A DNA stretch of 64,000 nucleotides from NCBI GenBank assembly GCA_012840925.1, contig DUVS01000015.1:119142-183141 (forward strand). The letters are read 5' to 3'. The stretch comes from Bacillota bacterium. Lineage in GTDB: Bacteria; Bacillota; Limnochordia; Darwinibacteriales; DTU012. The stretch's first letter is position 1; the number at the start of each line of letters is the position of its first letter. The notes beneath the pieces are model-generated. The model searched no databases, was not told where the DNA came from, and saw only the letters and a list, made by a program, of their open reading frames with translations. Position numbers and translations under genes: made by a program. Of this stretch, positions 2,403-61,808 are shown piece by piece.

Positions 2403-2843
2403 GTGCTTGATGGTGAAGTGGGCATAAATTCCAGTGCTGGGAACAACTTCATAAAGAGGTTTAGCAGGACTTATGTTGAAGAAATAGAATATCTAAAGCG
2501 AAGTTGTAATGAACCAGACTTTGTTACAACTGAACTAACTTATGTTAGTTATGGTTGTCCTTCACAATATTCCTGTGGCAAGACAGGAAAGGAGGTGACA
2601 GTTCCCCCAAGGCAACAGCCAGGGAATATTGGAACGGTTGCAACCAGACATTCATGTCCAGTCATTGCAGTCGACGGAGTAACGGCAGCTGACGAAGGAA
2701 TACGGACAAATGAGGAAACATGGATACTCACTTGCAGTGATTCCTTCATCGCACCAGAGGATTGTTTAAGAACACTAGATCATCCAAGATCCGTAGTCTG
2801 AACAGAAGCATGAATTAAAGAGATTAAGGGGGATCATAACCGA
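2403..2843 (+). ncRNA. long, highly structured 5' leader / candidate ncRNA upstream of the porin-like gene
   Basis: About 440 nt with no credible RBS-preceded ORF. Contains multiple inverted repeats (GTTGTAA..TTACAAC; AACTAAC..GTTAGTT; TCCTGT..ACAGGA; GAAGGAAT..ATTCCTTC) and ends in a strong RBS (TTAAGGGGGATCATAACCGAATG). The 132-aa ORF predicted here has no RBS. Confidence 0.3.
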
Positions 2844-4205
2844 ATGAAGAAATCAATGATGGTTTTAACACTAGTGCTTGTATTTGCAGTTTCCGGTTCA
2901 GTTTTCGCAGCCGGAATCAAGTTTGACGGTTCTTTGAAATCAAATCTCGAGTGGTACAGAGATTTGGAAGGTGAAATTGAGACCCGGCCGTCTTCCGAAC
3001 TGAGTTTGAACTTTGGTTTGGATACAGCCAGTGAAAAGACTAGAGCTGTTGTGGAATTTGGCATTGGCCATAAAAACAGCCAAGGCCTGGATCTGGAATT
3101 GGATGCCAGCAACTTGGTCTTGAAGAAAGCTTATATTGAAACTGATGGCTCTTTCTGGCACGGCGGACCTGAAGCAACAACCCGCTTCGGCAGTCTCGAC
3201 ATTGATTACGGCCCATTCAGCGTAGTCAAGGACCAATATGGTATCAGTGTCAGTGACATGAATATTGGGCCGGTTGCAGTCAAGGGATTCTACGGTATCC
3301 CGAGCCAAGAGCAAAAATCAATTCAAGGCTTGAGAGCCGACATGCTCATGGATAATATCGCTGCCGGTGCAGCTGTAGTCCATGACTGGGATGCATTGCA
3401 CGTAGCAGTTGACGGTGCTATTCGTCCGATGCAGGATCTGATTCTCGGTGCATCAGTTGCTACTCAGTTCGACATGAGACAAGAAGCTGAAGGTGAAGAA
3501 GGCGAAGAAGGCGAAGCAGAAGAGAACGCACTAAGACACATGTTAGCAGTTGGAGCTCAATATCAGGTAATGGATAACTTGAGTGTCCGCGGCGGATACA
3601 AAGCCATTTCTGAAGACTGGCAGCCAGAGTACTTGGCAGACAAAGCCAAGAAAGCTGCTGACGATCGCGGCCAAAACTGGATCCACGAGAGCGAACGCAG
3701 AAACAGTGGTTTCTATGCTGGTATCTCCACCAACCAGTCTGGTATCCAACTAGCAGCTGACTACGATCAAATCTTTGACGAGGCAATTTTGACTGCTGCA
3801 ACCGATGTGGAAGGATACAATGTTAACGTTGAAACAGTACTGGCAGTTGGCGCTGAAGAAGGTATCAAAACTGAAAGCACAACTCTGGGAGTCGAAAAAG
3901 CATTTGCAGTAATGAACGGCTTGGATATCACAGCTAAATACAACGGCAAGTGGACACCAGCAACCGGATTGGTTCACACTGTTGGTGCCAATACCAAGTT
4001 GGGCTTAATCCCTGCAGTTGATGGTCTTGAGCTGAATAGTGAAGTAACAGTCTCCGATCTTGAAACTATTGGCTATCAAGTAGGAGCTAGCTTCGACGCA
4101 CCAAACGGTATTGGCCTGAGCATCAAGCACGTTGGCGGTAAATTCGCTGATGAATCAGTCAAAACTGGTACTACTGCCAAAGCAGGTATCGCAGTTAAAT
4201 TCTAG
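2844..4205 (+). CDS. secreted beta-barrel, porin-like outer-membrane-type protein (hypothetical)
   Basis: Signal peptide MKKSMMVLTLVLVFAVSGSVFA|AG. Alternating hydrophobic/polar beta-strand pattern with a C-terminal ...GIAVKF (terminal Phe typical of OMP beta-barrels). Internal acidic low-complexity EAEGEEGEEGEAEE. Strong RBS GGGGGAT. Confidence 0.5.
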   Translation: MKKSMMVLTLVLVFAVSGSVFAAGIKFDGSLKSNLEWYRDLEGEIETRPSSELSLNFGLDTASEKTRAVVEFGIGHKNSQGLDLELDASNLVLKKAYIETDGSFWHGGPEATTRFGSLDIDYGPFSVVKDQYGISVSDMNIGPVAVKGFYGIPSQEQKSIQGLRADMLMDNIAAGAAVVHDWDALHVAVDGAIRPMQDLILGASVATQFDMRQEAEGEEGEEGEAEENALRHMLAVGAQYQVMDNLSVRGGYKAISEDWQPEYLADKAKKAADDRGQNWIHESERRNSGFYAGISTNQSGIQLAADYDQIFDEAILTAATDVEGYNVNVETVLAVGAEEGIKTESTTLGVEKAFAVMNGLDITAKYNGKWTPATGLVHTVGANTKLGLIPAVDGLELNSEVTVSDLETIGYQVGASFDAPNGIGLSIKHVGGKFADESVKTGTTAKAGIAVKF

Positions 4206-4230
4206 TAATAACTCCAGCTATCTTGAAATA

Positions 4231-4260
4231 AAGCGGTCTGTAGCTTACAGACCGCTTTAT
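4231..4260 (+). terminator. terminator hairpin after the porin-like gene
   Basis: AAGCGGTCTGTA-gct-TACAGACCGCTT perfect 12-bp stem, flanked by an A-tract and a short T-run (bidirectional type). Confidence 0.6.
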
Positions 4261-4655
4261 GATTAGAGCAGGTCTGAAATATACGCATGCTAAGGCAGGA
4301 ATTCAGAGGATTGTGGTGAATATTAATTCTAAGTATGCCCGGCACTGCCTTGGGCTTTAAGAACTCTTTAAAAATATATTAATTAAAAGAAGGATATTTA
4401 TTTTGGTTGTGGAATAGTCAGATTAAGAGAGATACTTGCGTGTGGTGTTTCAGCATATAATGTCGGTTTTTTCAAGAAAACGATGTGGATTTTCAGTTGG
4501 CTTTGAGGCAGTTTTTTTTGTGATCTCTCTACTGACAATGGAAAAGTAAAATAGAATCGAATAGTTTCCGGGAGGTGTTCTGCAGATAATTTGACCAATC
4601 AAACAATTTGGACCCAATAAGCCAAGTGCTAAATTTATATAGAGGAGGGTAATTA

Positions 4656-5816
4656 ATGGCCAGGGTATTGCTAGACAGCGTTACCAAGCGTTTTGGTAAT
4701 GTTATAGCAGTAAATGATGTAGATTTGGAAGTTAAAGATAAAGAGTTTGTAGTATTGGTAGGCCCGTCCGGGTGTGGAAAAACAACTACACTGCGGATGA
4801 TTGCCGGACTGGAAGAGATTACTAAAGGAACCATCAGCATTGGAGATACTGTTGTTAACGACATTCCTCCAAAAGACAGAGACATTGCCATGGTGTTCCA
4901 AAACTATGCCTTGTATCCTCATATGGATGTTTATAATAACATGGCTTTTGGCTTGAAACTGCGCAAGTTTCCAAAGACTGAGATCGATCGCCGCGTAAAA
5001 GAAGCAGCGCGGATGTTAGGCATTGAAAATCTGCTTGACAGAAAACCAAAACAACTCTCTGGTGGTCAGCGCCAACGTGTTGCTGTAGGCCGGGCAGTTG
5101 TTCGGGAACCCAAAGTATTCCTGATGGACGAGCCGCTGTCCAACTTGGACGCTAAATTGCGGGTACAGATGAGAGCTGAATTGAGCAAACTGCATCAACG
5201 GCTGCAGGCTACCATCATCTATGTAACCCACGACCAGATTGAGGCTATGACCATGGGTGACCGGATTGTAGTCATGCGCGACGGCTTGATTCAACATGTA
5301 GCCAGCCCGCTGGTGATCTACAACCATCCTAACAATGCGTTTGTAGCCGGGTTTATTGGTAGCCCGCCCATGAACTTCATTAACATGATCTTGACTCGCG
5401 AAGATGATCGTTACTTCGTAGAGACCATCGAAGGCCGGGTCAAATTGGAAATTCCACGCGAACGTGTAGATTACTTCGAGAATATCGATGCTTATGTGGA
5501 AAAAGAAGTAATCTTCGGTATCCGTCCTGAGGACATTGAAGACTACAATGTATACAAAGCACAATATGGCGAAGTGGCAGAAGGTGTAATGAATTCCTTT
5601 ACCGCTATGGTGGACGTAATTGAACCGATGGGTGCTGAAACATATCTCTACCTGTCACTCGATGAAGAAATTCCACAATTGATTGCCCGTGTTGATGCCC
5701 AGACCACTGCCGTAGGCGGTGAGCAGCACAAAGTCGCAATCAATATGAACAAATGCCAACTGTTTGACAAGGAAACTGAGAAAACACTACGCAAAGAGAA
5801 TGTACGCCTAAGATAG
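4656..5816 (+). CDS. msmX: sugar-type ABC transporter ATP-binding protein (MsmX/MalK/UgpC family), with no adjacent permease genes
   Basis: Walker [11 protein letters not shown]-loop, signature [10 protein letters not shown], Walker [13 protein letters not shown], plus a C-terminal MalK-like regulatory domain. RBS AGAGGAGGG. Confidence 0.9.
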
Positions 5817-6807: not shown

Positions 6808-7077
6808 TTGGCTCAAAATAGGCGAATAGTGGTCTCTGTGCCCAACAAGCTGTTGAAGGAAGTGGATCAGGTCGTGCAGGAAGGAAACGGCAACCGGAGC
6901 CAGTTTATCCGGGAAGCGGTTCAGATGTATATCCTGCACCGGAAACGAGCCTCTTTGCGGGAACAACTGAAAAGTGGATATCAAACCATGGCAGCCATTA
7001 ACATGCTCTTAGCTGAAGAAGGAACCGATGAGCAATTGCTTGACCAGTATGAAAGACAGTTAGCGGAGGCGGAATAA
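6808..7077 (+). CDS. mazE: RHH/CopG-type antitoxin (MazE / EndoAI-like)
   Basis: TTG start 7 nt after [35 protein letters not shown] is a ribbon-helix-helix fold motif. Gene lies immediately upstream of, and is coupled to, the MazF-like toxin. Confidence 0.75.
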
Positions 7078-7078
7078 T

Positions 7079-7435
7079 GTGCAGCAAACGATAAGGCGTG
7101 GGGATATCTTCTATGCCAACCTCAATCCGGTTATTGGGTCGGAACAGGGTGGCGTACGGCCTGTCTTGATTCTACAGAACAATATTGGCAACAAGTACAG
7201 CCCAACCACGATTATTGCAGCGATAACGTCAAAAATCAAAAAGGCCAAGCTGCCGACTCATGTAGAATTATCAGCTGCTGAGTTTAACCTCGACAAAGAC
7301 TCGGTTATTCTGCTGGAGCAGCTGCGAACTATTGACAAAAGGCGTTTGAAGGAGAAGATCGCCCATTTGGATGAAGAGATTATGAGCGAAATCGATCGGG
7401 CCATCATGATCAGTCTGGGCTTGGTCGATCTGTAA
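7079..7435 (+). CDS. mazF: MazF/PemK-family endoribonuclease toxin (NdoA/EndoA-like)
   Basis: [74 protein letters not shown] is near-collinear with Bacillus EndoA/NdoA. GTG start lies 1 nt after the antitoxin stop, with RBS GGAGGCGG. Confidence 0.9.
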
Positions 7436-8223: not shown

Positions 8224-9246
8224 ATGGCAAGTATTGTAGCAAGAGTATATCGAAACCAGATGGTGGAAAGTGTTCATTATGGTGATTGGGTGATCGTCAA
8301 TCAAGAAGGGAAGATCATTGCCAGCCAAGGTGATCCGGGCCTGAAAACTTTTTTCCGTTCCGCTGCCAAACCTATCCAGGCTTTGCCTGTAGTAGAGCAG
8401 GGAGCGGCAGACCATTTTGGTTTCAACGACGAGGAACTGGCGGTTATGTGCGCATCCCATAACGGAGAACCGGAGCATTTGGCAGCGGTTAGTTCAATCC
8501 TGGCCAAAATCGGGCTCGATCAAACAGCCCTTCAGTGTGGAGTTCATCCGCCAAGGCATCCGGGGCAGCTGCATCTGTTAATCCGTACTGGCGCAGAACC
8601 GAGCGAGCTTCATAATAACTGTTCTGGCAAGCATGCCGGGATGTTGGCCTTATGCGTATATCATGGTTGGGACCTTGACGGATACACAGCCCCGGGTCAT
8701 CCGCTGCAGCAAATGGTTTTGTCATACATTAGTGAGTTTTGTGATGCTGCAGAGGATACAATAAATCTGGGAATTGATGGCTGTGGTGTCCCGGTATTTG
8801 GTTTATCCATAACTCAAATGGCTTTGGGATGGGCCCGCCTGGCTGATCCCAGCCGGTTTTCGCCGCAGCGCGTCAAGGCTGTGGAGCGGATCAGGAAAGC
8901 CATGGGCAGCCACCCCCATCTGGTGGCCGGGTCGAACCGGTTATGTACTGACTTATTGAAGGCCTTTCGCAGCCATGGTTTGGTGGCCAAATCAGGAGCT
9001 GAGGCGGTGTACTGTATCGCGATGCCCGACCGGGGCTGGGGGTTGGCCTTGAAGATCGCCGATGGCAGCAGCCGGCCGGTGGCTCCAGTCGTACTTGCCA
9101 TTTTAAACCAACTAGGCTATAGTGGTGACAGAAATATCTTGGATCAGTATCAGCCATCAGTGATCCGCAACCACCATCAACAGCCTGTCGGTGAGATTGT
9201 GCCTGATTTGTCTGAAGCTAAATTTGAAAGGGTAGTTAACCAGTGA
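8224..9246 (+). CDS. asparaginase II family protein (PF06089-like)
   Basis: 340 aa. FRSAAKPIQALP...MCASHNGE...NNCSGKHAGML...GIDGCGVPVF motifs characteristic of the Rhizobium-type L-asparaginase II family. Confidence 0.75.
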   Translation: MASIVARVYRNQMVESVHYGDWVIVNQEGKIIASQGDPGLKTFFRSAAKPIQALPVVEQGAADHFGFNDEELAVMCASHNGEPEHLAAVSSILAKIGLDQTALQCGVHPPRHPGQLHLLIRTGAEPSELHNNCSGKHAGMLALCVYHGWDLDGYTAPGHPLQQMVLSYISEFCDAAEDTINLGIDGCGVPVFGLSITQMALGWARLADPSRFSPQRVKAVERIRKAMGSHPHLVAGSNRLCTDLLKAFRSHGLVAKSGAEAVYCIAMPDRGWGLALKIADGSSRPVAPVVLAILNQLGYSGDRNILDQYQPSVIRNHHQQPVGEIVPDLSEAKFERVVNQ

Positions 9247-9707
9247 AATACATCGCAGAATCACCCCGGGATACGATGGCGCTGGGCATGACCTTGGCCC
9301 AGCTGCTGCAGCCTGGTGATGTGGTCAGTCTCGAAGGGGACTTGGGTGCAGGGAAAACGCAGCTTGCCAAAGGAATTGGTGCCGGTTTAGGCATAGCAGA
9401 AACAGTGATCACCAGCCCTAGCTATACACTGATTAATCAGTACGAAGGCAAATATCCTTTGTACCATTTTGACGTATACCGGATCGAGCCGGTTGATTTA
9501 GAGGATCTTGGCTACGAGGAGTATTTTTTTGGCAAGGGTATTTGCCTGGTGGAGTGGGGTAACCAGATTCGGGAGTATCTGCCCACAGAGTATCTGCAGA
9601 TAATCATTGAGCAGACAGCCATCCAGCAGCGGGAGTTTACCCTCATTGCCCACGGGGAGCGTTATCAACAGCTGTTAGATCAACTAGAAGTGGTGGTTCA
9701 GGCATGA
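9243..9707 (+). CDS. tsaE: tRNA threonylcarbamoyladenosine biosynthesis protein TsaE (YjeE)
   Basis: P-loop GDLGAGKTQLAKGI; about 150 aa; overlaps the neighbouring genes by 4 nt. Confidence 0.85.
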   Translation: MKYIAESPRDTMALGMTLAQLLQPGDVVSLEGDLGAGKTQLAKGIGAGLGIAETVITSPSYTLINQYEGKYPLYHFDVYRIEPVDLEDLGYEEYFFGKGICLVEWGNQIREYLPTEYLQIIIEQTAIQQREFTLIAHGERYQQLLDQLEVVVQA

Positions 9708-21273: not shown

Positions 21274-21334
21274 AACGAAAAAACAAGGCTGCCCTAGGGG
21301 ACAGCCTTTGGACAGCTTCTTGTCGGGAAGCGGA

Positions 21335-22138
21335 TTACCTGAAGAAACTATGATTGCCGATCCTGATTTTGAGTGGGTCCTTATACCACTGCTCCCAGAC
21401 CCAGGGGACCTTGCCGCCGGACCATTGAGGCACCTTGGCATGGGCAAAGAACCCGGTTGCCCCGTGGGTGGGATCCCACCCGGCCAAAGCGTGCCTGACA
21501 GCGTTTTTAGCTGTCTGATTTGCCGGCTGGTTGATGGCTCCGTTCTTAACCGGTTCGTATTGGTAATAACGGATTCCGTTGGTGATAGTCACTTGATTGA
21601 TCACGTCGGTAATCGTATTTGGGTACCTGGAATCGAGGACCCGGTTGAGCACGGTGGCAGCGACCGCTACCTGGCCGGTATAGATCTCGCCTTTGGCTTC
21701 AGCATAGACCAGCCTGGCGAAGAGATCGAGTTCATAAAAGGCAAGATCGGGAACCATCGTTATGTTTTGAACCGTTGGGCCTTGAACCATGACCTGGATT
21801 GTCACAGGCTTGTACCACCGTTTGATGACACGCATGGTGTAAATGCCATCCTGCAGATTCTTCACTTCGTAAACGCCATCTTTGATCGGCACAACACGGC
21901 CCGCGATTTCAACCTGACCGGACTGGAGTTTGGCCTCGGGAAATCCGGCATCGTAGACTTCACCCACCAGGGTACCATAGGTGGGCACCTGTGTTTCGTC
22001 ATCAGGATCGCCGCCGGGATCGCCATTCGGATCCCCGTTCTCGTCAGGTGGAGTTATATCCGGCACGCCAATAAGAGAACAGCCGGATATGAGGATTGCT
22101 GCAATAAGTATGAGGAGCAAAAAGTGCTTCTTTCCCAA
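21335..22138 (-). CDS. SleB/CwlJ-family cell-wall hydrolase lipoprotein (Hydrolase_2 domain)
   Basis: Lipoprotein signal KKHFLLLILIAAILISGCS. C-terminal DLFARLVYAEAKGE...VAATVLNRV...GWDPTHGATGFFA Hydrolase_2 signature. Proposed TTG start after GGAAGGAAG. Confidence 0.75.
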   Translation of the reverse strand: MGKKHFLLLILIAAILISGCSLIGVPDITPPDENGDPNGDPGGDPDDETQVPTYGTLVGEVYDAGFPEAKLQSGQVEIAGRVVPIKDGVYEVKNLQDGIYTMRVIKRWYKPVTIQVMVQGPTVQNITMVPDLAFYELDLFARLVYAEAKGEIYTGQVAVAATVLNRVLDSRYPNTITDVINQVTITNGIRYYQYEPVKNGAINQPANQTAKNAVRHALAGWDPTHGATGFFAHAKVPQWSGGKVPWVWEQWYKDPLKIRIGNHSFFR

Positions 22139-22285
22139 AAAACTCACTTCCTTCCATAGCTGTAAAAAAGTTATAATCTGAATCATAATTTCGGGTTTGC
22201 CCAGCTAAACCCTGCTGGGGGTTGTTGGAAACAGACCCTGGCAGGTCTTTGTTGAAACAATGCAGAGAACAGAGAGGAGCATGAC

Positions 22286-33880: not shown

Positions 33881-34192
33881 ACTTTAAACATATTCAAAGG
33901 TATTCCGAGAAAAGCAATGACCGGGAGGAGTAGCTGAGTACCGCCTTGCAGAGAGGGAAACAACAGGTGCAAGTTTCCCAGGTATGGGCTGGCGAAGGTC
34001 GCCCGGGAGCTGTTGGGATGAAACGGGAGATGTTTCCATGAGTAGTTCCAGCCGTCTGGCGCGTTAAGCCAACTGAGGGCTCAACAGCATGCTGAGTTCT
34101 GGTTTTGTTTATGCTGTATGAGAACAAAGGTGGTACCGCGGAAGTCTTTTCGTCCTTTAGATGAAAAGACTTTATTTTTTTGGAGGAGTGAA
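33881..34192 (+). promoter_or_regulatory. T-box riboswitch leader (Val-specific) with intrinsic terminator
   Basis: Conserved T-box sequence AAAGGTGGTACCGCGG (34124-34142). It is immediately followed by terminator AGTCTTTTC...GAAAAGACT plus TTTATTTTTTT (34143-34181). GGTC (GUC Val codon) is a candidate specifier within GAAGGTCGCC. Located upstream of valS. Confidence 0.7.
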
Positions 34193-39066: not shown

Positions 39067-39132
39067 AGCTTTTTTATGGGCATAACCATCCATCCCGTTT
39101 TCATATTTATGGGAAGTAAGGGTGGTGCTCAT

Positions 39133-40083
39133 ATGAGGCGTAGAACGAGGAGGAAACGGCTTGTTCTTTTGAAGTGGATGACGGCCATGGTCTTGTTGCT
39201 GATTGGAATTCCCCTGCTCTTTGTGTACGGCATTAAATTACCTTGGAAAGCCAGACAAGTGCCCATCATCAACCTGTGGGACGTGCAGAACTCCCAGCTG
39301 CTGACCATGACCTTGGAGGAGTATGTCAAAGGAGTTGTGGCTGCTGAGATGCCCGTCCATTTTCATCTCGAAGCTCTAAAAGCGCAAGCAGTGGTGGCCC
39401 GCACCTATGCTTACCAGCGGATTGTCAACAATGTGAGGGTCCCGGATCATCCGGAAGCGCACTTGTCGACAGACTATTCCACCGGCCAGGCCTGGATTTC
39501 CAGTGATGAGCTCAAAGCCCGGTGGGGCTTGATGGATTATCTGATCAACTGGAAGAAAATCAGTAAAGCAGTAGCGCAAACCCAAGGGATAATTGCCACC
39601 CATCAGGGTAAACCAATCTTAGCGGTGTACCATTCCACCAGCGGGGGACGGACAGAAAACTCTGAGCATTACTGGTCGGAAGCACTGCCTTATCTGCGCA
39701 GTGTGGCTGATCCTTATGGCAATCATTCTCCTTATTACTACACAACTGCGGTTTTTAGTGCCACAGAGTTTTTGAAGCTGATGGAAGTGAGTTCGTTGGG
39801 CAAAGTTCAGGTGCTGGAACGCTATCCATCGGGACGGGTAAAGACCATGGAAGCGGGTAACAAGTGGTTCAGCGGCCGTGATGTAAGGCAGCGGCTCGGG
39901 CTGCGTTCAACCTGGTTTACAGTAAACGTAAGCGATGATCAAATCCAGTTTGCTGTCTGGGGTTATGGGCATGGGGTCGGTATGAGTCAATATGGTGCGG
40001 ACGGAATGGCCCAGGCTGGGTATGATTACCGCCAAATTCTCCAATACTACTACCAGGGTATCTCGTTGGAAAAGCTGTACTGA
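39133..40083 (+). CDS. spoIID: stage II sporulation protein D (SpoIID, lytic transglycosylase)
   Basis: N-terminal TM. YVKGVVAAEMPV...EALKAQAVVARTYA...HSTSGGRTENSE are conserved SpoIID motifs. ATG at 39133 after AAGGGTGGTG. Confidence 0.85.
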   Translation: MRRRTRRKRLVLLKWMTAMVLLLIGIPLLFVYGIKLPWKARQVPIINLWDVQNSQLLTMTLEEYVKGVVAAEMPVHFHLEALKAQAVVARTYAYQRIVNNVRVPDHPEAHLSTDYSTGQAWISSDELKARWGLMDYLINWKKISKAVAQTQGIIATHQGKPILAVYHSTSGGRTENSEHYWSEALPYLRSVADPYGNHSPYYYTTAVFSATEFLKLMEVSSLGKVQVLERYPSGRVKTMEAGNKWFSGRDVRQRLGLRSTWFTVNVSDDQIQFAVWGYGHGVGMSQYGADGMAQAGYDYRQILQYYYQGISLEKLY

Positions 40084-48874: not shown

Positions 48875-49117
48875 ATGACCACCCGTTCGTCCAACAGTTT
48901 GGTTACGGCGGTATTGCTGTTTGTGATTATTGGCCTGCTCGCTGAAAGTCAGATTCCGTTTGGAACAGAAGTTACTAACTACTTGGAATTTATTTTAACC
49001 ACAGATTTTGATTTGCGTTTTGTCACCAGGCCCATTGAGCAGCTGAGGCAGGCTTTCTCAAGTTTTGACATGACGGCTTTGACTCAGGGTTTACCCCGTG
49101 TGCCAACGGGTTGGTGA
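48875..49117 (+). CDS. small hypothetical single-pass membrane protein (80 aa) immediately upstream of spoIVFB
   Basis: RBS GAGGGAGGTG. One TM helix, LVTAVLLFVIIGLLA. Stop lies 2 nt before the spoIVFB start. Confidence 0.35.
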   Translation: MTTRSSNSLVTAVLLFVIIGLLAESQIPFGTEVTNYLEFILTTDFDLRFVTRPIEQLRQAFSSFDMTALTQGLPRVPTGW

Positions 49118-49121
49118 GTCT

Positions 49122-50024
49122 ATGAAAGTCGGCTCGTTTTTGGGGATTGTATTTAAAGTCAATCCCTTTTTTTTACTGCTTATTACGCTGGCCTTTGTTT
49201 TTGGGCAGCTGCTGCCGGCGCTGATCTTGTTTGCAATTGTCCTTTTTCACGAGCTTGCCCATACCATTACTGCTTTTGCCTACGGACTGCGGGTTATCGA
49301 AGTGGAGCTGCTTCCCTTTGGCGGGGTGGCTCGCATGGATCATTTGCTGGAGTTAAATCCAAAGATCGAAACTGTAGTGGCGCTGGCAGGGCCTTTGAGC
49401 AATTTGCTGCTTCTGGCTGTGTTGTGGGCCTGTCACACATACGGTCTGCTGGTTGCAGATTGGTTTTGGTTCCTTGCCCGGGCCAATCTCAGCATGGCTG
49501 CCCTCAACCTTTTGCCCGGGCTACCCCTTGACGGGGGCCGGATCTTGCGGAGCCGTCTGCTCTACCGCTGCGGATTCTGCAAAGCTACAGAAAGAGCAGC
49601 CAAGATGGGCCAGTTTTTGGCTGTTGGTTTGATGGCCTTAGGCTTAATCGGCAGTCTGGCGGCAGCGGATGCCAGTGGGGCTTTGTTGGTGGTTGTAGGG
49701 ATATTTTTATTTATGGCGGCCAAAAAAGAAGCGGCACAGGCGATGTATGTGTTCTTGCGCTATCTGATTCAAAAGCAGTTCCAGGTAAGAACAGAGCGAG
49801 TGATGCCTGCCAAAGAACTGGTGGCCACTTGCGAAACTACTGTCGGCGAAGTTATCCGTTGTCTTACACCTTCGTTCTATCATTTGATCTGGATTATTGA
49901 CCTGCAAGGCAGGCTGATCGGGGTTTTGACAGAGTTGGAATTGATCAACGGCTTGCTGGAACAAGGGATTCATGATAAACTTAATAAATTGGTTAAGCAA
50001 CGTTTTAACCATAGGTATGATTAG
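49122..50024 (+). CDS. spoIVFB: stage IV sporulation protein FB (site-2 protease, M50 family, pro-sigma-K processing enzyme) with a C-terminal CBS domain
   Basis: HELAH zinc motif within a TM helix. LNLLPGLPLDGG (NPDG-like) motif. C-terminal CBS-type domain. Conserved position after minCDE. Confidence 0.8.
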   Translation: MKVGSFLGIVFKVNPFFLLLITLAFVFGQLLPALILFAIVLFHELAHTITAFAYGLRVIEVELLPFGGVARMDHLLELNPKIETVVALAGPLSNLLLLAVLWACHTYGLLVADWFWFLARANLSMAALNLLPGLPLDGGRILRSRLLYRCGFCKATERAAKMGQFLAVGLMALGLIGSLAAADASGALLVVVGIFLFMAAKKEAAQAMYVFLRYLIQKQFQVRTERVMPAKELVATCETTVGEVIRCLTPSFYHLIWIIDLQGRLIGVLTELELINGLLEQGIHDKLNKLVKQRFNHRYD

Positions 50025-54045: not shown

Positions 54046-54148
54046 TATTGAAGCGGGTTTGGATGTGTTGTGAAACCGCATGGTACAGGCTTTTTAAAAC
54101 ACAGCATGTGTGCCTGGGACCAGCGAGTCTGAGCAAGGAGGTGGAGTA

Positions 54149-55183: not shown

Positions 55184-56482
<1,299 letters not shown>

Positions 56483-61556: not shown

Positions 61557-61808
61557 TTATTGTGGGCGGAACGTATTGCCAAGTGTAGTCGCTTGATTAG
61601 CAAGAGCCTGCTCTGCCGATGCAATCATCTTTCTGACCATATGGCCTCCGACAGCGCCGCATTCCCGGGAAGTGATGTTACCCCAGTAACCGGTTTTATA
61701 CTCCGGGTTTATATTCAGCTCTTGAGCAACTTCGTATTTAAATTGGTTCAACGCGTTGTAAGCTTGCGGTACCAGTTTTTGATTTGATGAACCGGAACCT
61801 TGTGCCAT
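61557..61808 (-). CDS. ssp: alpha/beta-type small acid-soluble spore protein
   Basis: KYEVAQELNINPEYKTGYWGNITSRECGAVGGHMVRKMIASAEQ matches the alpha/beta SASP signature (KxEIAxE..G...SRxxGxVGGxMVKxMI). RBS GGGGTG. Confidence 0.9.
   Translation of the reverse strand: MAQGSGSSNQKLVPQAYNALNQFKYEVAQELNINPEYKTGYWGNITSRECGAVGGHMVRKMIASAEQALANQATTLGNTFRPQ

Follow-up and report, generated by a model that had tools for sequence, protein, structure and literature searches.

The classical porins of Gram-negative bacteria are 16- to 18-stranded beta-barrels with an in-folded constriction loop, and are usually trimeric. OmpM, the SLH tether-porin of diderm Firmicutes and other Terrabacteria, has an N-terminal SLH domain and a coiled-coil stalk, and binds peptidoglycan or a secondary cell-wall polymer. 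Diderm Firmicutes are the main model for the loss of the outer membrane on the way to Gram-positive bacteria, and work on Veillonella has led to the proposal, extended to diderm Firmicutes generally, that OmpM is both the tether and the only porin (PMC10628300). The P66 porin of Borrelia is described as 24-stranded (PMC4613713).

The Limnochordia are the third class of diderm, spore-forming Firmicutes, and their diderm nature is documented by TEM and by outer-membrane gene clusters (PMC11456536, PMC11448272, 10.1101/2021.05.31.446380). The outer membrane of the cultured species Carboxydochorda subterranea has been seen by TEM (PMC11456536), and an outer-membrane gene cluster is reported for all 46 Limnochordia genomes analysed by Taib 2020, as cited in PMC11456536. 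Since the Limnochordia are already known as diderm spore-formers, neither the lineage nor its cell type is new, and the conclusion at the level of the organism is established knowledge. On the other hand, we found no paper describing a porin from this class, and the SLH-less porin family presented below is new and hitherto undescribed.

The window, by which we mean the whole 64-kb stretch of DNA analysed here, comes from this class: its ValS clusters at 90% identity or more with many Limnochordia MAGs, and its proteins are those deposited at NCBI as HHX016xx. The preliminary description had listed endospore genes, all of which were located:

39076-40083, SpoIID
49098-50024, M50 protease with a weak CBS match, after minCDE
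21335-22186, minus strand, SleB/CwlJ-type Hydrolase_2
61557-61808, minus strand, alpha/beta-type SASP

The genes gpr and SpoIIP and a GerM-like gene lie just outside the window. The same description had pointed to a diderm, spore-forming Firmicute resembling Negativicutes or Halanaerobiales; the outer-membrane barrel in a diderm spore-former stands, while the organism belongs to neither of these groups but to the Limnochordia. No BamA, Skp, Lpx or OmpM gene is present in the 64-kb window or in about 17 kb of its flanks on the 191-kb contig (about 7 kb on the upstream side, 10 kb on the downstream side), and tblastn searches of the window and 36 loci with E. coli BamA, Skp, LpxA, LpxB, LpxC and LpxD returned no matches. 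It is important to note that these loci are all the same syntenic region, so that this result says nothing about the rest of the genome; the diderm status of the source genome rests on class membership and on the literature.

We argue that one gene of the window encodes a pore-forming outer-membrane beta-barrel protein of the Limnochordia, a lineage of spore-forming, two-membrane Firmicutes, and we give this reading a probability of about 0.8. The gene and the features of its product are:

2844-4205, plus strand, porin-like outer-membrane beta-barrel gene (453 aa, ATG start, end ...AGIAVKF)
2844-2909, plus strand, Sec signal peptide, residues 1-22, cleavage between VFA and AG (read from the sequence; helix in the model)
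3483-3524, plus strand, acidic insertion EAEGEEGEEGEAEE, residues 214-227, in predicted extracellular loop 6 (residues 211-230)
3609-3704, plus strand, longest loop, predicted to be extracellular loop 7 (residues 256-287; short helix formed by 278-281)
4173-4202, plus strand, C-terminal beta-signal GTTAKAGIAVKF (polar at -7, Gly at -5, hydrophobic at -2, Phe at 0)

The product is identical to NCBI HHX01652.1, which is labelled 'hypothetical protein'. Its signal peptide consists of MKK, a 13-residue hydrophobic core and SGSVFA followed by AG; it obeys the -3/-1 rule and has no lipobox Cys, the 453-aa protein being altogether devoid of cysteine. This region is kept in the full-length homologs of the alignment and forms a helix (residues 2-20) in the structure model; cleavage by signal peptidase I is predicted. 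The mature protein has about 431 residues and, in the model, is opened directly by strand 1 at residue 24. The strands are amphipathic: averaged over the 24 modelled strands, the odd/even difference in hydropathy is 2.51, compared to 1.46 +/- 0.22 after shuffling within strands, and none of 1000 shuffles reaches the observed value. Both the signal peptide and the amphipathic strands noted previously are thus borne out.

The beta-signal of outer-membrane barrels follows the pattern polar-x-G-x-x-hydrophobic-x-aromatic, the last residue being Phe, Trp or Tyr. The terminal octet K-A-G-I-A-V-K-F fits this pattern. The final Phe, previously taken as an outer-membrane barrel signature, turns out to be present in 62/62 aligned homologs within a conserved GTTxxAG[I/M]xVxF, which strengthens that assignment; F453 is invariant in the homolog alignment, and so, wholly or nearly, are G448, V451, T443 and T444 (at least 90% conservation for G448 and V451).

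Two independent AlphaFold2 runs gave the same 24 strands (pLDDT 74.5 and 87.1, pTM 0.59 and 0.78), so that the structure prediction suggested earlier as a check yields a barrel and no other fold. The predicted closed barrel is larger than those of classical porins, and the matches listed in the fold search are membrane barrels only. Most turns of the 24-strand model have 2-6 residues, and the loops of 16, 20 and 32 residues are all at extracellular junctions, in agreement with the loop-length rule of outer-membrane proteins. The longest of them, loop 7, is modelled with a pLDDT of about 93 in the second run and contains the near-invariant residues P261, Y263 and W279, which makes it a candidate for a pore-constricting element. 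The acidic stretch EAEGEEGEEGEAEE that had been described as unusual for a porin is real, sits at an odd-to-even strand junction and is predicted to be in an extracellular loop (pLDDT 42-47 in the first model, 66-68 in the second). It is not a trait of the family, however, since it is confined to one subclade and variable in length: it is always acidic in the 17 closest homologs and is missing from the clade at about 40% identity.

The family carries no annotation other than hypothetical protein, and it counts 76 representatives in 1.84 billion. The named homologs come from Limnochordia or unclassified Bacillota MAGs and from the cultured Carboxydochorda subterranea (WP_324717285.1) only; none of them comes from a monoderm or carries an S-layer or cell-wall annotation, which was another of the checks proposed at the outset. 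A profile search with a 94-sequence alignment brought up no relative that is named or lies outside the class. The gene occupies the same chromosomal position in about 28 genomes, including that of Carboxydochorda, down to 26% identity, which supports orthology.

No Pfam or NCBIfam model matches the 453-aa protein above threshold. Its only Pfam match at E<=10 is a sub-threshold one to DUF7213, which excludes at this level both Porin_4 (PF13609) and the SLH domain, whose absence had already been noted as a difference from OmpM and is upheld here. Searches of the PDB by sequence, with the single protein or with the family profile, gave nothing significant. As to the relatives, 39/62 homologs match Porin_4 at E<=0.01 (best 7.9e-9), a few of them above its gathering score of 27 bits (29.1, 30.5 and 33.8 bits), and 19/62 match OMP_b-brl. 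The NCBIfam model NF033939 DESULF_POR1, for a homotrimeric porin of Desulfovibrio, scores 19.4 bits (E 3.6e-4) for a cutoff of 250 bits, and this only within the N-terminal 100 residues or so. The Porin_4 model spans only about the first 330 residues, which is consistent with the presence of extra strands, and the tie to Porin_4 is at the level of the superfamily only.

According to the mechanism that we propose, the precursor would be exported via Sec and its signal peptide cut after VFA; BamA would then recognise the conserved C-terminal beta-signal with its final Phe, and the 24-stranded barrel would be inserted into the outer membrane, with short periplasmic turns and three longer surface loops, one of them acidic and lineage-specific. 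Lacking an SLH domain or any other periplasmic domain, the protein would not act as a tether between membrane and wall. Its most likely role would be that of a high-abundance channel for the diffusion of nutrients, separate from the OmpM tether-porins.

The expectation of abundance comes from the gene and its surroundings, whose features are:

2438-2490, plus strand, conserved upstream box and promoter-like region: TGGGAAC (2438), TAGCAGGA (2462), TAGAAT (2485)
2497-2843, plus strand, putative 5' leader of the porin mRNA, about 350 nt, non-coding, conserved as sequence blocks
2533-2550, plus strand, leader hairpin AACTAAC-TTAT-GTTAGTT
2586-2598, plus strand, Shine-Dalgarno-like block GGAAAGGAGGTGA, about 250 nt 5' of the start codon, candidate STAB-SD-type stabiliser
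2712-2729, plus strand, leader block GAGGAAACATGGATACTC, nearly invariant, kept in 25 loci of both clades
2826-2834, plus strand, ribosome-binding site AAGGGGGAT, 9 nt ahead of the ATG, conserved in all loci
4228-4260, plus strand, terminator-like hairpin after the stop codon (15-bp stem, 3-nt loop; -28.1 kcal/mol, z-score -3.8)

The box TAGCAGGA is found about 305-390 nt 5' of the porin start in 23/30 loci. A loose sigma-H-like pattern fits 18/23 of these boxes; where the clades differ by an indel of 3 nt, the -35 element is displaced by 3 nt in compensation. We also considered, and rejected, a standard sigma-70 promoter or terminator next to the gene: the consensus scan, which reported TTAGCA-18-TAGAAT, performed no better than chance. 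That scan missed the terminator hairpin, which was found by folding, because the U-tract is weak. The hairpin suggests that the porin gene is a monocistronic unit; its transcription start is putative.

The leader DNA is 73-80% identical where the porin proteins are 76-87% identical, and it combines long invariant blocks with frame-breaking indels of 1 and 2 nt. Such indels between close relatives led us to discard the idea that an ORF (2403-2801, 132 aa) is coding in this region. The leader is not a riboswitch or a structured cis-regulatory RNA either: Rfam gave no credible match, and RNAalifold on 25 leaders predicted 7 pairs, none covarying, at -2.9 kcal/mol. The leader hairpin, which was read by eye, is present in most loci and is unconfirmed by the RNAalifold alignment; in loci L019-L023 it is swapped for other self-complementary sequences, also spotted by eye, such as CCAC-TCG-TGGG. 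As for the Shine-Dalgarno-like block, AGGAGGTG is invariant in 25/25 aligned leaders and occurs a single time in the region, only ahead of the porin. It is not followed by a conserved ORF, since the sequence downstream is variable and contains indels. We propose that the gene is transcribed alone from the conserved promoter box, with its leader of about 350 nt, and that ribosomes bound to the invariant block probably stabilise the mRNA. The porin ranks 2nd of the 45 window genes in codon adaptation, according to an index built on four reference genes only. Judging from the strong ribosome-binding site, the conserved leader, the terminator hairpin and the codon adaptation, the porin is most likely highly expressed.

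It is possible, and we put this forward only tentatively, that the protein is the unrecognised major porin of the Limnochordia: a plug-less, SLH-less, 24-stranded and unusually wide barrel encoded at a fixed position, which would take care of uptake apart from tethering by OmpM, and whose gene would possibly have a sigma-H-type promoter and a STAB-SD-like leader. A plug-less barrel of 24 strands would be very wide by the standards of general porins, which counts against its being one.

Whether the protein might instead be a channel specific for oligosaccharides, acting together with the MalK/MsmX-type ABC ATPase encoded next to it and with sugar importers, is more doubtful. The porin and the MalK-type ATPase genes are directly adjacent in most related genomes, even though their order flips between clades, and in locus L039 only a tandem second gene sits between them. 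(For the second gene found downstream of the porin in other clades, an origin as a tandem paralog is unsupported: the hhalign probability is 12%, and the signal peptide alone aligns.) A Cof-type HAD sugar phosphatase is encoded upstream of the porin. The porin and the ATPase have the top two codon-adaptation scores of the window, the only three sigma-H-like matches of the whole window (at 2464, 4295 and 4389) precede these two genes, and the fold matches include maltoporin and chitoporins. On the contrary, synteny extends over the whole stretch between uvrC and groEL, which makes the adjacency unspecific and only weak evidence of a functional link; the two genes have their own promoter regions, with the terminator hairpin between them, and no gene for a sugar-binding protein or a permease is present near the porin.

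A secretion or export pore for a fibre or a polysaccharide, usher-like or AlgE-like, is unlikely. The best structural matches are indeed the chaperone-usher pores, the only solved barrels that align over about 360 residues, when the alignments with classical porins span only about 250. However, the identity to ushers is 8-12% and the likeness reflects the size of the barrel, whereas the relatives of the protein match Porin_4; the Usher model of Pfam (PF00577) does not match the 453-aa protein, whose short mature chain has neither a plug nor N- or C-terminal periplasmic domains, and there is no chaperone, pilin or exopolysaccharide gene nearby in any of the approximately 28 genomes.

Last, the preliminary description had raised the alternative of a secreted beta-rich protein in a monoderm. 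A secreted or wall-associated beta-rich (S-layer-like) protein of a monoderm Firmicute, with barrel features that are coincidental, is very improbable: the absence of outer-membrane biogenesis genes from the window, the presence of an LCP-family (LytR_cpsA_psr) enzyme, typical of Gram-positive walls, and the sub-threshold scores of the protein with every porin model would fit it, but it is unsupported in the face of a predicted closed barrel (pLDDT 87) whose listed fold matches are all membrane barrels, a beta-signal invariant in all 62 homologs, the lack of an SLH or other wall-binding domain, homologs limited to a class documented as diderm that includes a TEM-verified isolate (PMC11456536), and a second outer-membrane-barrel gene, located about 6 kb upstream on this contig, that scores above the cutoff of Pfam OMP_b-brl.

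If the protein is indeed an outer-membrane channel, a class-wide, probably abundant barrel without SLH domain would mean that uptake and tethering are not always performed by one protein in this phylum, and the major-porin reading, if correct, would contradict the view that diderm Firmicutes have no porin other than OmpM. The gene would also offer a simple genomic marker, present in single copy, by which to recognise Limnochordia MAGs as diderm, which is useful because such genomes are deposited under the labels unclassified Firmicutes/Bacillota, Clostridia or Peptococcaceae. The plug-less 24-stranded architecture, if real, would make an unusually large diffusion pore; Carboxydochorda subterranea is a cultured host that has an ortholog. 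From its sequence, the conserved leader is a candidate case of mRNA stabilisation mediated by a Shine-Dalgarno sequence outside Bacilli. The precedent is the 5' mRNA stabiliser of cry3Aa from Bacillus thuringiensis (Agaisse & Lereclus 1996, as cited in PMC12970973). Like this STAB-SD, the Limnochordia block is a perfect Shine-Dalgarno-type sequence deep in a long, putative 5' UTR, far from the start of a Firmicute gene expected to be highly expressed; unlike it, the block is about 250 nt upstream (about 125 nt in cry3Aa) and shares the leader with other conserved blocks.

The barrel itself can be compared with four known systems. The general Gram-negative porins (Porin_4 family; OmpF, Omp32, Campylobacter MOMP, Occ/OprD) have 16-18 strands, compared to the 24 predicted here; most surface loops of the Limnochordia protein are very short, Porin_4 covers only the first 330 residues or so, and the window copy is below all thresholds. 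OmpM (Veillonella parvula OmpM1, PDB 8bym) has 16 strands, and the Limnochordia protein has no detectable sequence relationship with it; having neither the SLH domain nor the periplasmic stalk, it cannot tether the outer membrane to peptidoglycan. The chaperone-usher pores FimD and PapC have a barrel of the size predicted here, 24 strands, but the Limnochordia protein is about half their length, without plug and periplasmic domains and without chaperone or pilin neighbours. Borrelia P66, a porin-type channel of a non-proteobacterial diderm, offers a precedent in that it is likewise credited with about 24 strands, a number that is itself predicted; P66 is larger and is also an integrin-binding adhesin.

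The product of the ORF at 2844..4205 (+ strand, ATG start, 453 aa; HHX01652.1, 'hypothetical protein'; by exact-sequence look-up, the window's proteins are the NCBI entries HHX016xx) is, with a probability that we put at about 80%, an outer-membrane β-barrel. This protein, hereafter the porin, would be inserted by BAM as an outer-membrane channel of a Limnochordia bacterium. The descriptive statements made about it in the preliminary description are all correct. The signal peptide is recognizable in the N-terminus, MKKSMMVLTLVLVFAVSGSVFA followed by AG after cleavage, from a basic n-region, a hydrophobic core of 13 residues and a small-x-small cleavage site; no lipobox cysteine is read in it. 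The strands described as amphipathic and alternating do alternate: the odd/even difference in hydropathy, averaged over the strands of the model, is 2.51, versus 1.46 ± 0.22 for within-strand shuffles (0 out of 1000 reach 2.51). The poly-acidic stretch is EAEGEEGEEGEAEE, residues 214–227, in a protein with 66 acidic, 37 basic, 35 aromatic and 0 cysteine residues. The window's copy is matched by no Pfam model, the sole match at E ≤ 10 being sub-threshold (DUF7213), and the SLH domain is indeed absent at that E value. The β-signal has the pattern polar-x-G-x-x-hydrophobic-x-aromatic, which fits the C-terminal motif of the family, GTTxxAG[I/M]xVxF. The window's copy ends in ...TGTTAKAGIAVKF, and the terminal Phe, which had been taken as barrel-type, is present in 62/62 aligned sequences.

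When 5.8 billion proteins were searched by word index, 64 relatives were returned, all from MAGs of uncultured Firmicutes/Bacillota or Limnochordia, and named just 'hypothetical protein' or 'opacity protein-like surface antigen'. With HMMER, all of 1.84 billion cluster representatives were scanned exhaustively, and only 76 match at E ≤ 1e-3; a profile built from 94 aligned sequences found 0 further relatives outside this group. Among GTDB contigs (one genome per species), the family occurs at 29 loci, many of them from anaerobic digesters, with labels that include Bacillota, Limnochordia, 'Ca. Darwinibacter acetoxidans', 'Peptococcaceae bacterium 1109' and 'uncultured Clostridia'. A distant full-length member, P0077 (26% identity, E 3e-26), is in the same 90% cluster as WP_324717285.1 from Carboxydochorda subterranea L945, a cultured isolate whose outer membrane is visible by TEM (PMC11456536). 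Porin_4 matches 39/62 relatives at E ≤ 0.01 (best 7.9e-9, a few exceeding the gathering score) and OMP_b-brl matches 19/62, which makes the family a distant branch, as yet without a name, of the membrane β-barrel porin superfamily.

The chromosomal slot of the porin is kept in about 28 genomes:

Upstream side: DUF2089, SHOCT, DUF4097, (SHOCT), Cof-type HAD phosphatase, then the porin and a MalK/MsmX-type ABC ATPase, in either order
Downstream side: XRE regulator (opposite strand), MazEF, C26 peptidase, tsaE, onward to groEL

This order is found even in a Limnochordaceae MAG whose porin copy is only 26% identical. Across genomes, the identity is 35–87% for the porin versus mostly 67–95% for its MalK-type neighbour, and such faster evolution is expected of a surface protein. 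The two genes are adjacent in both clades, in inverted order: the porin comes first in the window's clade (MalK-type gene at window 4656–5816), the MalK-type gene in the other (approximately 8400–9600 in loci L008–L028), while in one genome (L026) MalK-type copies flank the porin on both sides. Directly after the porin, the other clade and Limnochordaceae have a second β-rich signal-peptide gene (410–442 aa):

L012:11690–13018 and L039:12255–13487, + strand, second β-rich gene, product ending ...EVPF or ...SVSF

Homology between this product and the porin is not detectable (hhalign probability 12%). The gene is absent from the window and its clade, and there the slot has been taken over by the MalK-type gene. 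Inside the conserved block, window 6808–7435 (+) encodes a ribbon-helix-helix antitoxin and a MazF/PemK toxin; the identity of MazF is 78–95% across all related genomes, an unusually high conservation for a toxin–antitoxin module.

Downstream of the stop codon of the porin gene, a 15-bp hairpin (4228–4260, −28 kcal/mol, z −3.8) suggests that the gene is transcribed alone. The 520-bp intergenic region upstream of the gene is unexpectedly conserved, as discrete blocks (window 2420–2843), in about 25 genomes. Five elements recur, each block occurring once in the window:

About 305–390 nt before the porin start, box TGG(G/A)AA...TAGCAGGA, in 23/30 loci
Next after the box, small hairpin AACTAAC/GTTAGTT
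About 250 nt before the start, AGGAGGTG, invariant, perfect anti-Shine-Dalgarno match
Downstream of AGGAGGTG, GAGGAAACATGGAnACTC, nearly invariant
Last, strong RBS AAGGGGGAT

The leader is not a coding sequence, relatives differing by 1-nt and 2-nt indels; nor is it a riboswitch, since no Rfam family matches the region and neither a conserved structure nor covariation is seen by RNAalifold. Its blocks resemble a series of sites that are bound in a sequence-specific manner. The remote SD-like AGGAGGTG resembles the STAB-SD of Bacillus thuringiensis cry3Aa; in that gene, the transcript is shielded by a 30S subunit that binds within its 5′ UTR (Agaisse & Lereclus 1996, as cited in PMC12970973). 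We propose by analogy that it is a candidate STAB-SD-like stabilizer, at which a 30S subunit would protect the porin mRNA. A loose version of the Bacillus subtilis sigma-H consensus (RNAGGAWWW-N11-12-RNNGAAT) matches 18 of the 23 boxes; between clades, a 3-nt insertion is offset because the −35 element is shifted by 3 nt. Only three sigma-H-like matches occur in the 64-kb window, one before the porin (2464) and two, at 4295 and 4389, before the MalK-type gene:

4295–4321 and 4389–4415, + strand, strict sigma-H-like matches between the porin terminator and the MalK-type gene

We regard sigma-H-type promoters as a lead rather than a finding; the matches hint at a common regulator or sigma factor for the two genes. 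By codon-adaptation index, calculated with a small reference set (GroEL/ES, L21, L27), the MalK-type gene ranks first and the porin second of 45 genes, which fits high expression. The porin probably serves as a major diffusion pore and is probably highly expressed. It may be a general pore or, equally, one specific for oligosaccharides that is coupled to the sugar-transport ATPase next to it.

The structure prediction called for in the preliminary description supports a barrel. With a 62-sequence alignment, AlphaFold2 gives a pLDDT of 74.5 and a pTM of 0.59; with 94 more diverse sequences, the values are 87.1 and 0.78, and 5/5 models reach at least 83. Both models have an identical set of 24 predicted β-strands after the signal helix. 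When the Porin_4 model matches relatives end to end, it spans just the first 330 residues or so, which is consistent with extra strands in this family. If the topology is the usual one, with periplasmic N- and C-termini, all three long loops (residues 75–90, 211–230 and 256–287) are predicted at extracellular junctions, and the periplasmic turns are mostly of 2–6 residues. The acidic run, modelled with low confidence, sits in loop 6 (211–230); the insertion, limited to the 17 closest homologs, is variable in length and constant in acidity, which is how a putative surface-exposed, fast-evolving loop behaves. Foldseek ranks PapC and FimD first (E 3e-10, TM 0.45–0.57). An usher- or exporter-like role is unlikely, because the model has neither plug nor periplasmic domain and there are no partner genes near the porin.

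Regarding the organism, nearly all window genes are on the + strand, the GC skew is positive throughout and the genes follow the classical Bacillota order:

First: tsaEBD, groES/EL, his and arg operons, pcrA, ligA, lgt, fur
Next: T-box leader and valS, folC, SPOR protein, spoIID
Next: maf-radC-mreBCD-PBP2-minCDE, M50 protease (SpoIVFB position), radical-SAM gene, RNase G
Last: L21 leader with rplU-prp-rpmA, obg, nadD, LCP-family protein, rsfS, SASP, rnfC

The four sporulation genes mentioned in the preliminary description are all located, and gpr, a GerM-like gene and spoIIP lie directly downstream of the window. T-box and L21 leaders are typical Bacillota cis-regulators.

39076–40083, SpoIID
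49098–50024, M50 protease in the SpoIVFB position
21335–22186, minus strand, SleB/CwlJ-type Hydrolase_2 (E 8.5e-24)
61557–61808, minus strand, alpha/beta SASP
33908–34160, + strand, T-box leader before valS (Rfam, 112.7 bits)
54064–54140, + strand, L21 leader before rplU (Rfam, 36.6 bits, at threshold)

The plus-strand ORF in 21308–22186 is spurious: it has the same 283-aa length as the overlapping minus-strand ORF, and only the latter has a family match. Just downstream of the window, after rnfC, L030:11326–13632 (+) codes for a 768-aa product matching NQR2_RnfD_RnfE and FMN_bind, an apparent RnfD–RnfG fusion. The ≥90% cluster of the window's Obg (55193–56479) includes a 50-aa 'hypothetical protein' attributed to Streptomyces sp. 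NWU339 (WP_181383517.1); that assembly may contain a contaminant fragment or a sequence that was binned wrongly.

The window's ValS clusters at ≥90% identity with those of many Limnochordia bacterium MAGs, which places the organism in the class Limnochordia; the diderm spore-former of the preliminary description thus stands, but not its Negativicutes- or Halanaerobiales-like affiliation. Limnochordia are reported to be the third Firmicutes lineage with an LPS-containing outer membrane, beside these two. Watanabe 2016 (cited in PMC11448272) described Limnochorda pilosa as Gram-negative and spore-forming, an outer-membrane gene cluster is reported in 46/46 Limnochordia genomes analysed (Taib et al. 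2020, cited in PMC11456536), and the isolates Geochorda and Carboxydochorda have an outer membrane by TEM (PMC11456536; see also 10.1101/2021.05.31.446380). The co-occurrence of endospore genes and an outer-membrane protein is therefore real but already explained, and the organismal inference is known biology; the alternative considered earlier, a secreted β-rich protein of a monoderm, is effectively excluded. No BamA, Skp or Lpx genes are found in the DNA read, which is essentially one syntenic region and so gives no evidence of absence. On the same contig, some 6 kb before the window begins, there is a second outer-membrane-type barrel protein of this genome:

L033:3919–4671, minus strand, 250-aa OMP_b-brl protein (Pfam, 31.9 bits vs threshold 28.7)
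L033:4692–6551, minus strand, adjoining gene, 619-aa secreted S8 peptidase (subtilase) with a CarboxypepD_reg domain

We found no description of a Limnochordia porin in the searchable literature; what is new, on the basis of prediction, is the family, together with its predicted size and the conserved leader. According to the models, the protein should work like a porin, and it differs from the following known systems. Classical Porin_4 porins have 16–18 strands, whereas the window's protein has 24 predicted strands and is below the Porin_4 threshold; Borrelia P66, a porin credited with about 24 strands, is a precedent (PMC4613713). Ushers have a plug and accessory domains, which it lacks. It does not belong to the Desulfovibrio porin family (NF033939 of NCBIfam), whose match is weak and N-terminal (19 bits vs a cutoff of 250). 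Having no SLH, it is not one of the OmpM tether-porins, which bear that domain. The study of OmpM concluded that V. parvula probably has no porins other than OmpM paralogues, and that in diderm Firmicutes uptake goes together with tethering (PMC10628300). A barrel without SLH that is conserved in Limnochordia would limit how far this generalization holds.
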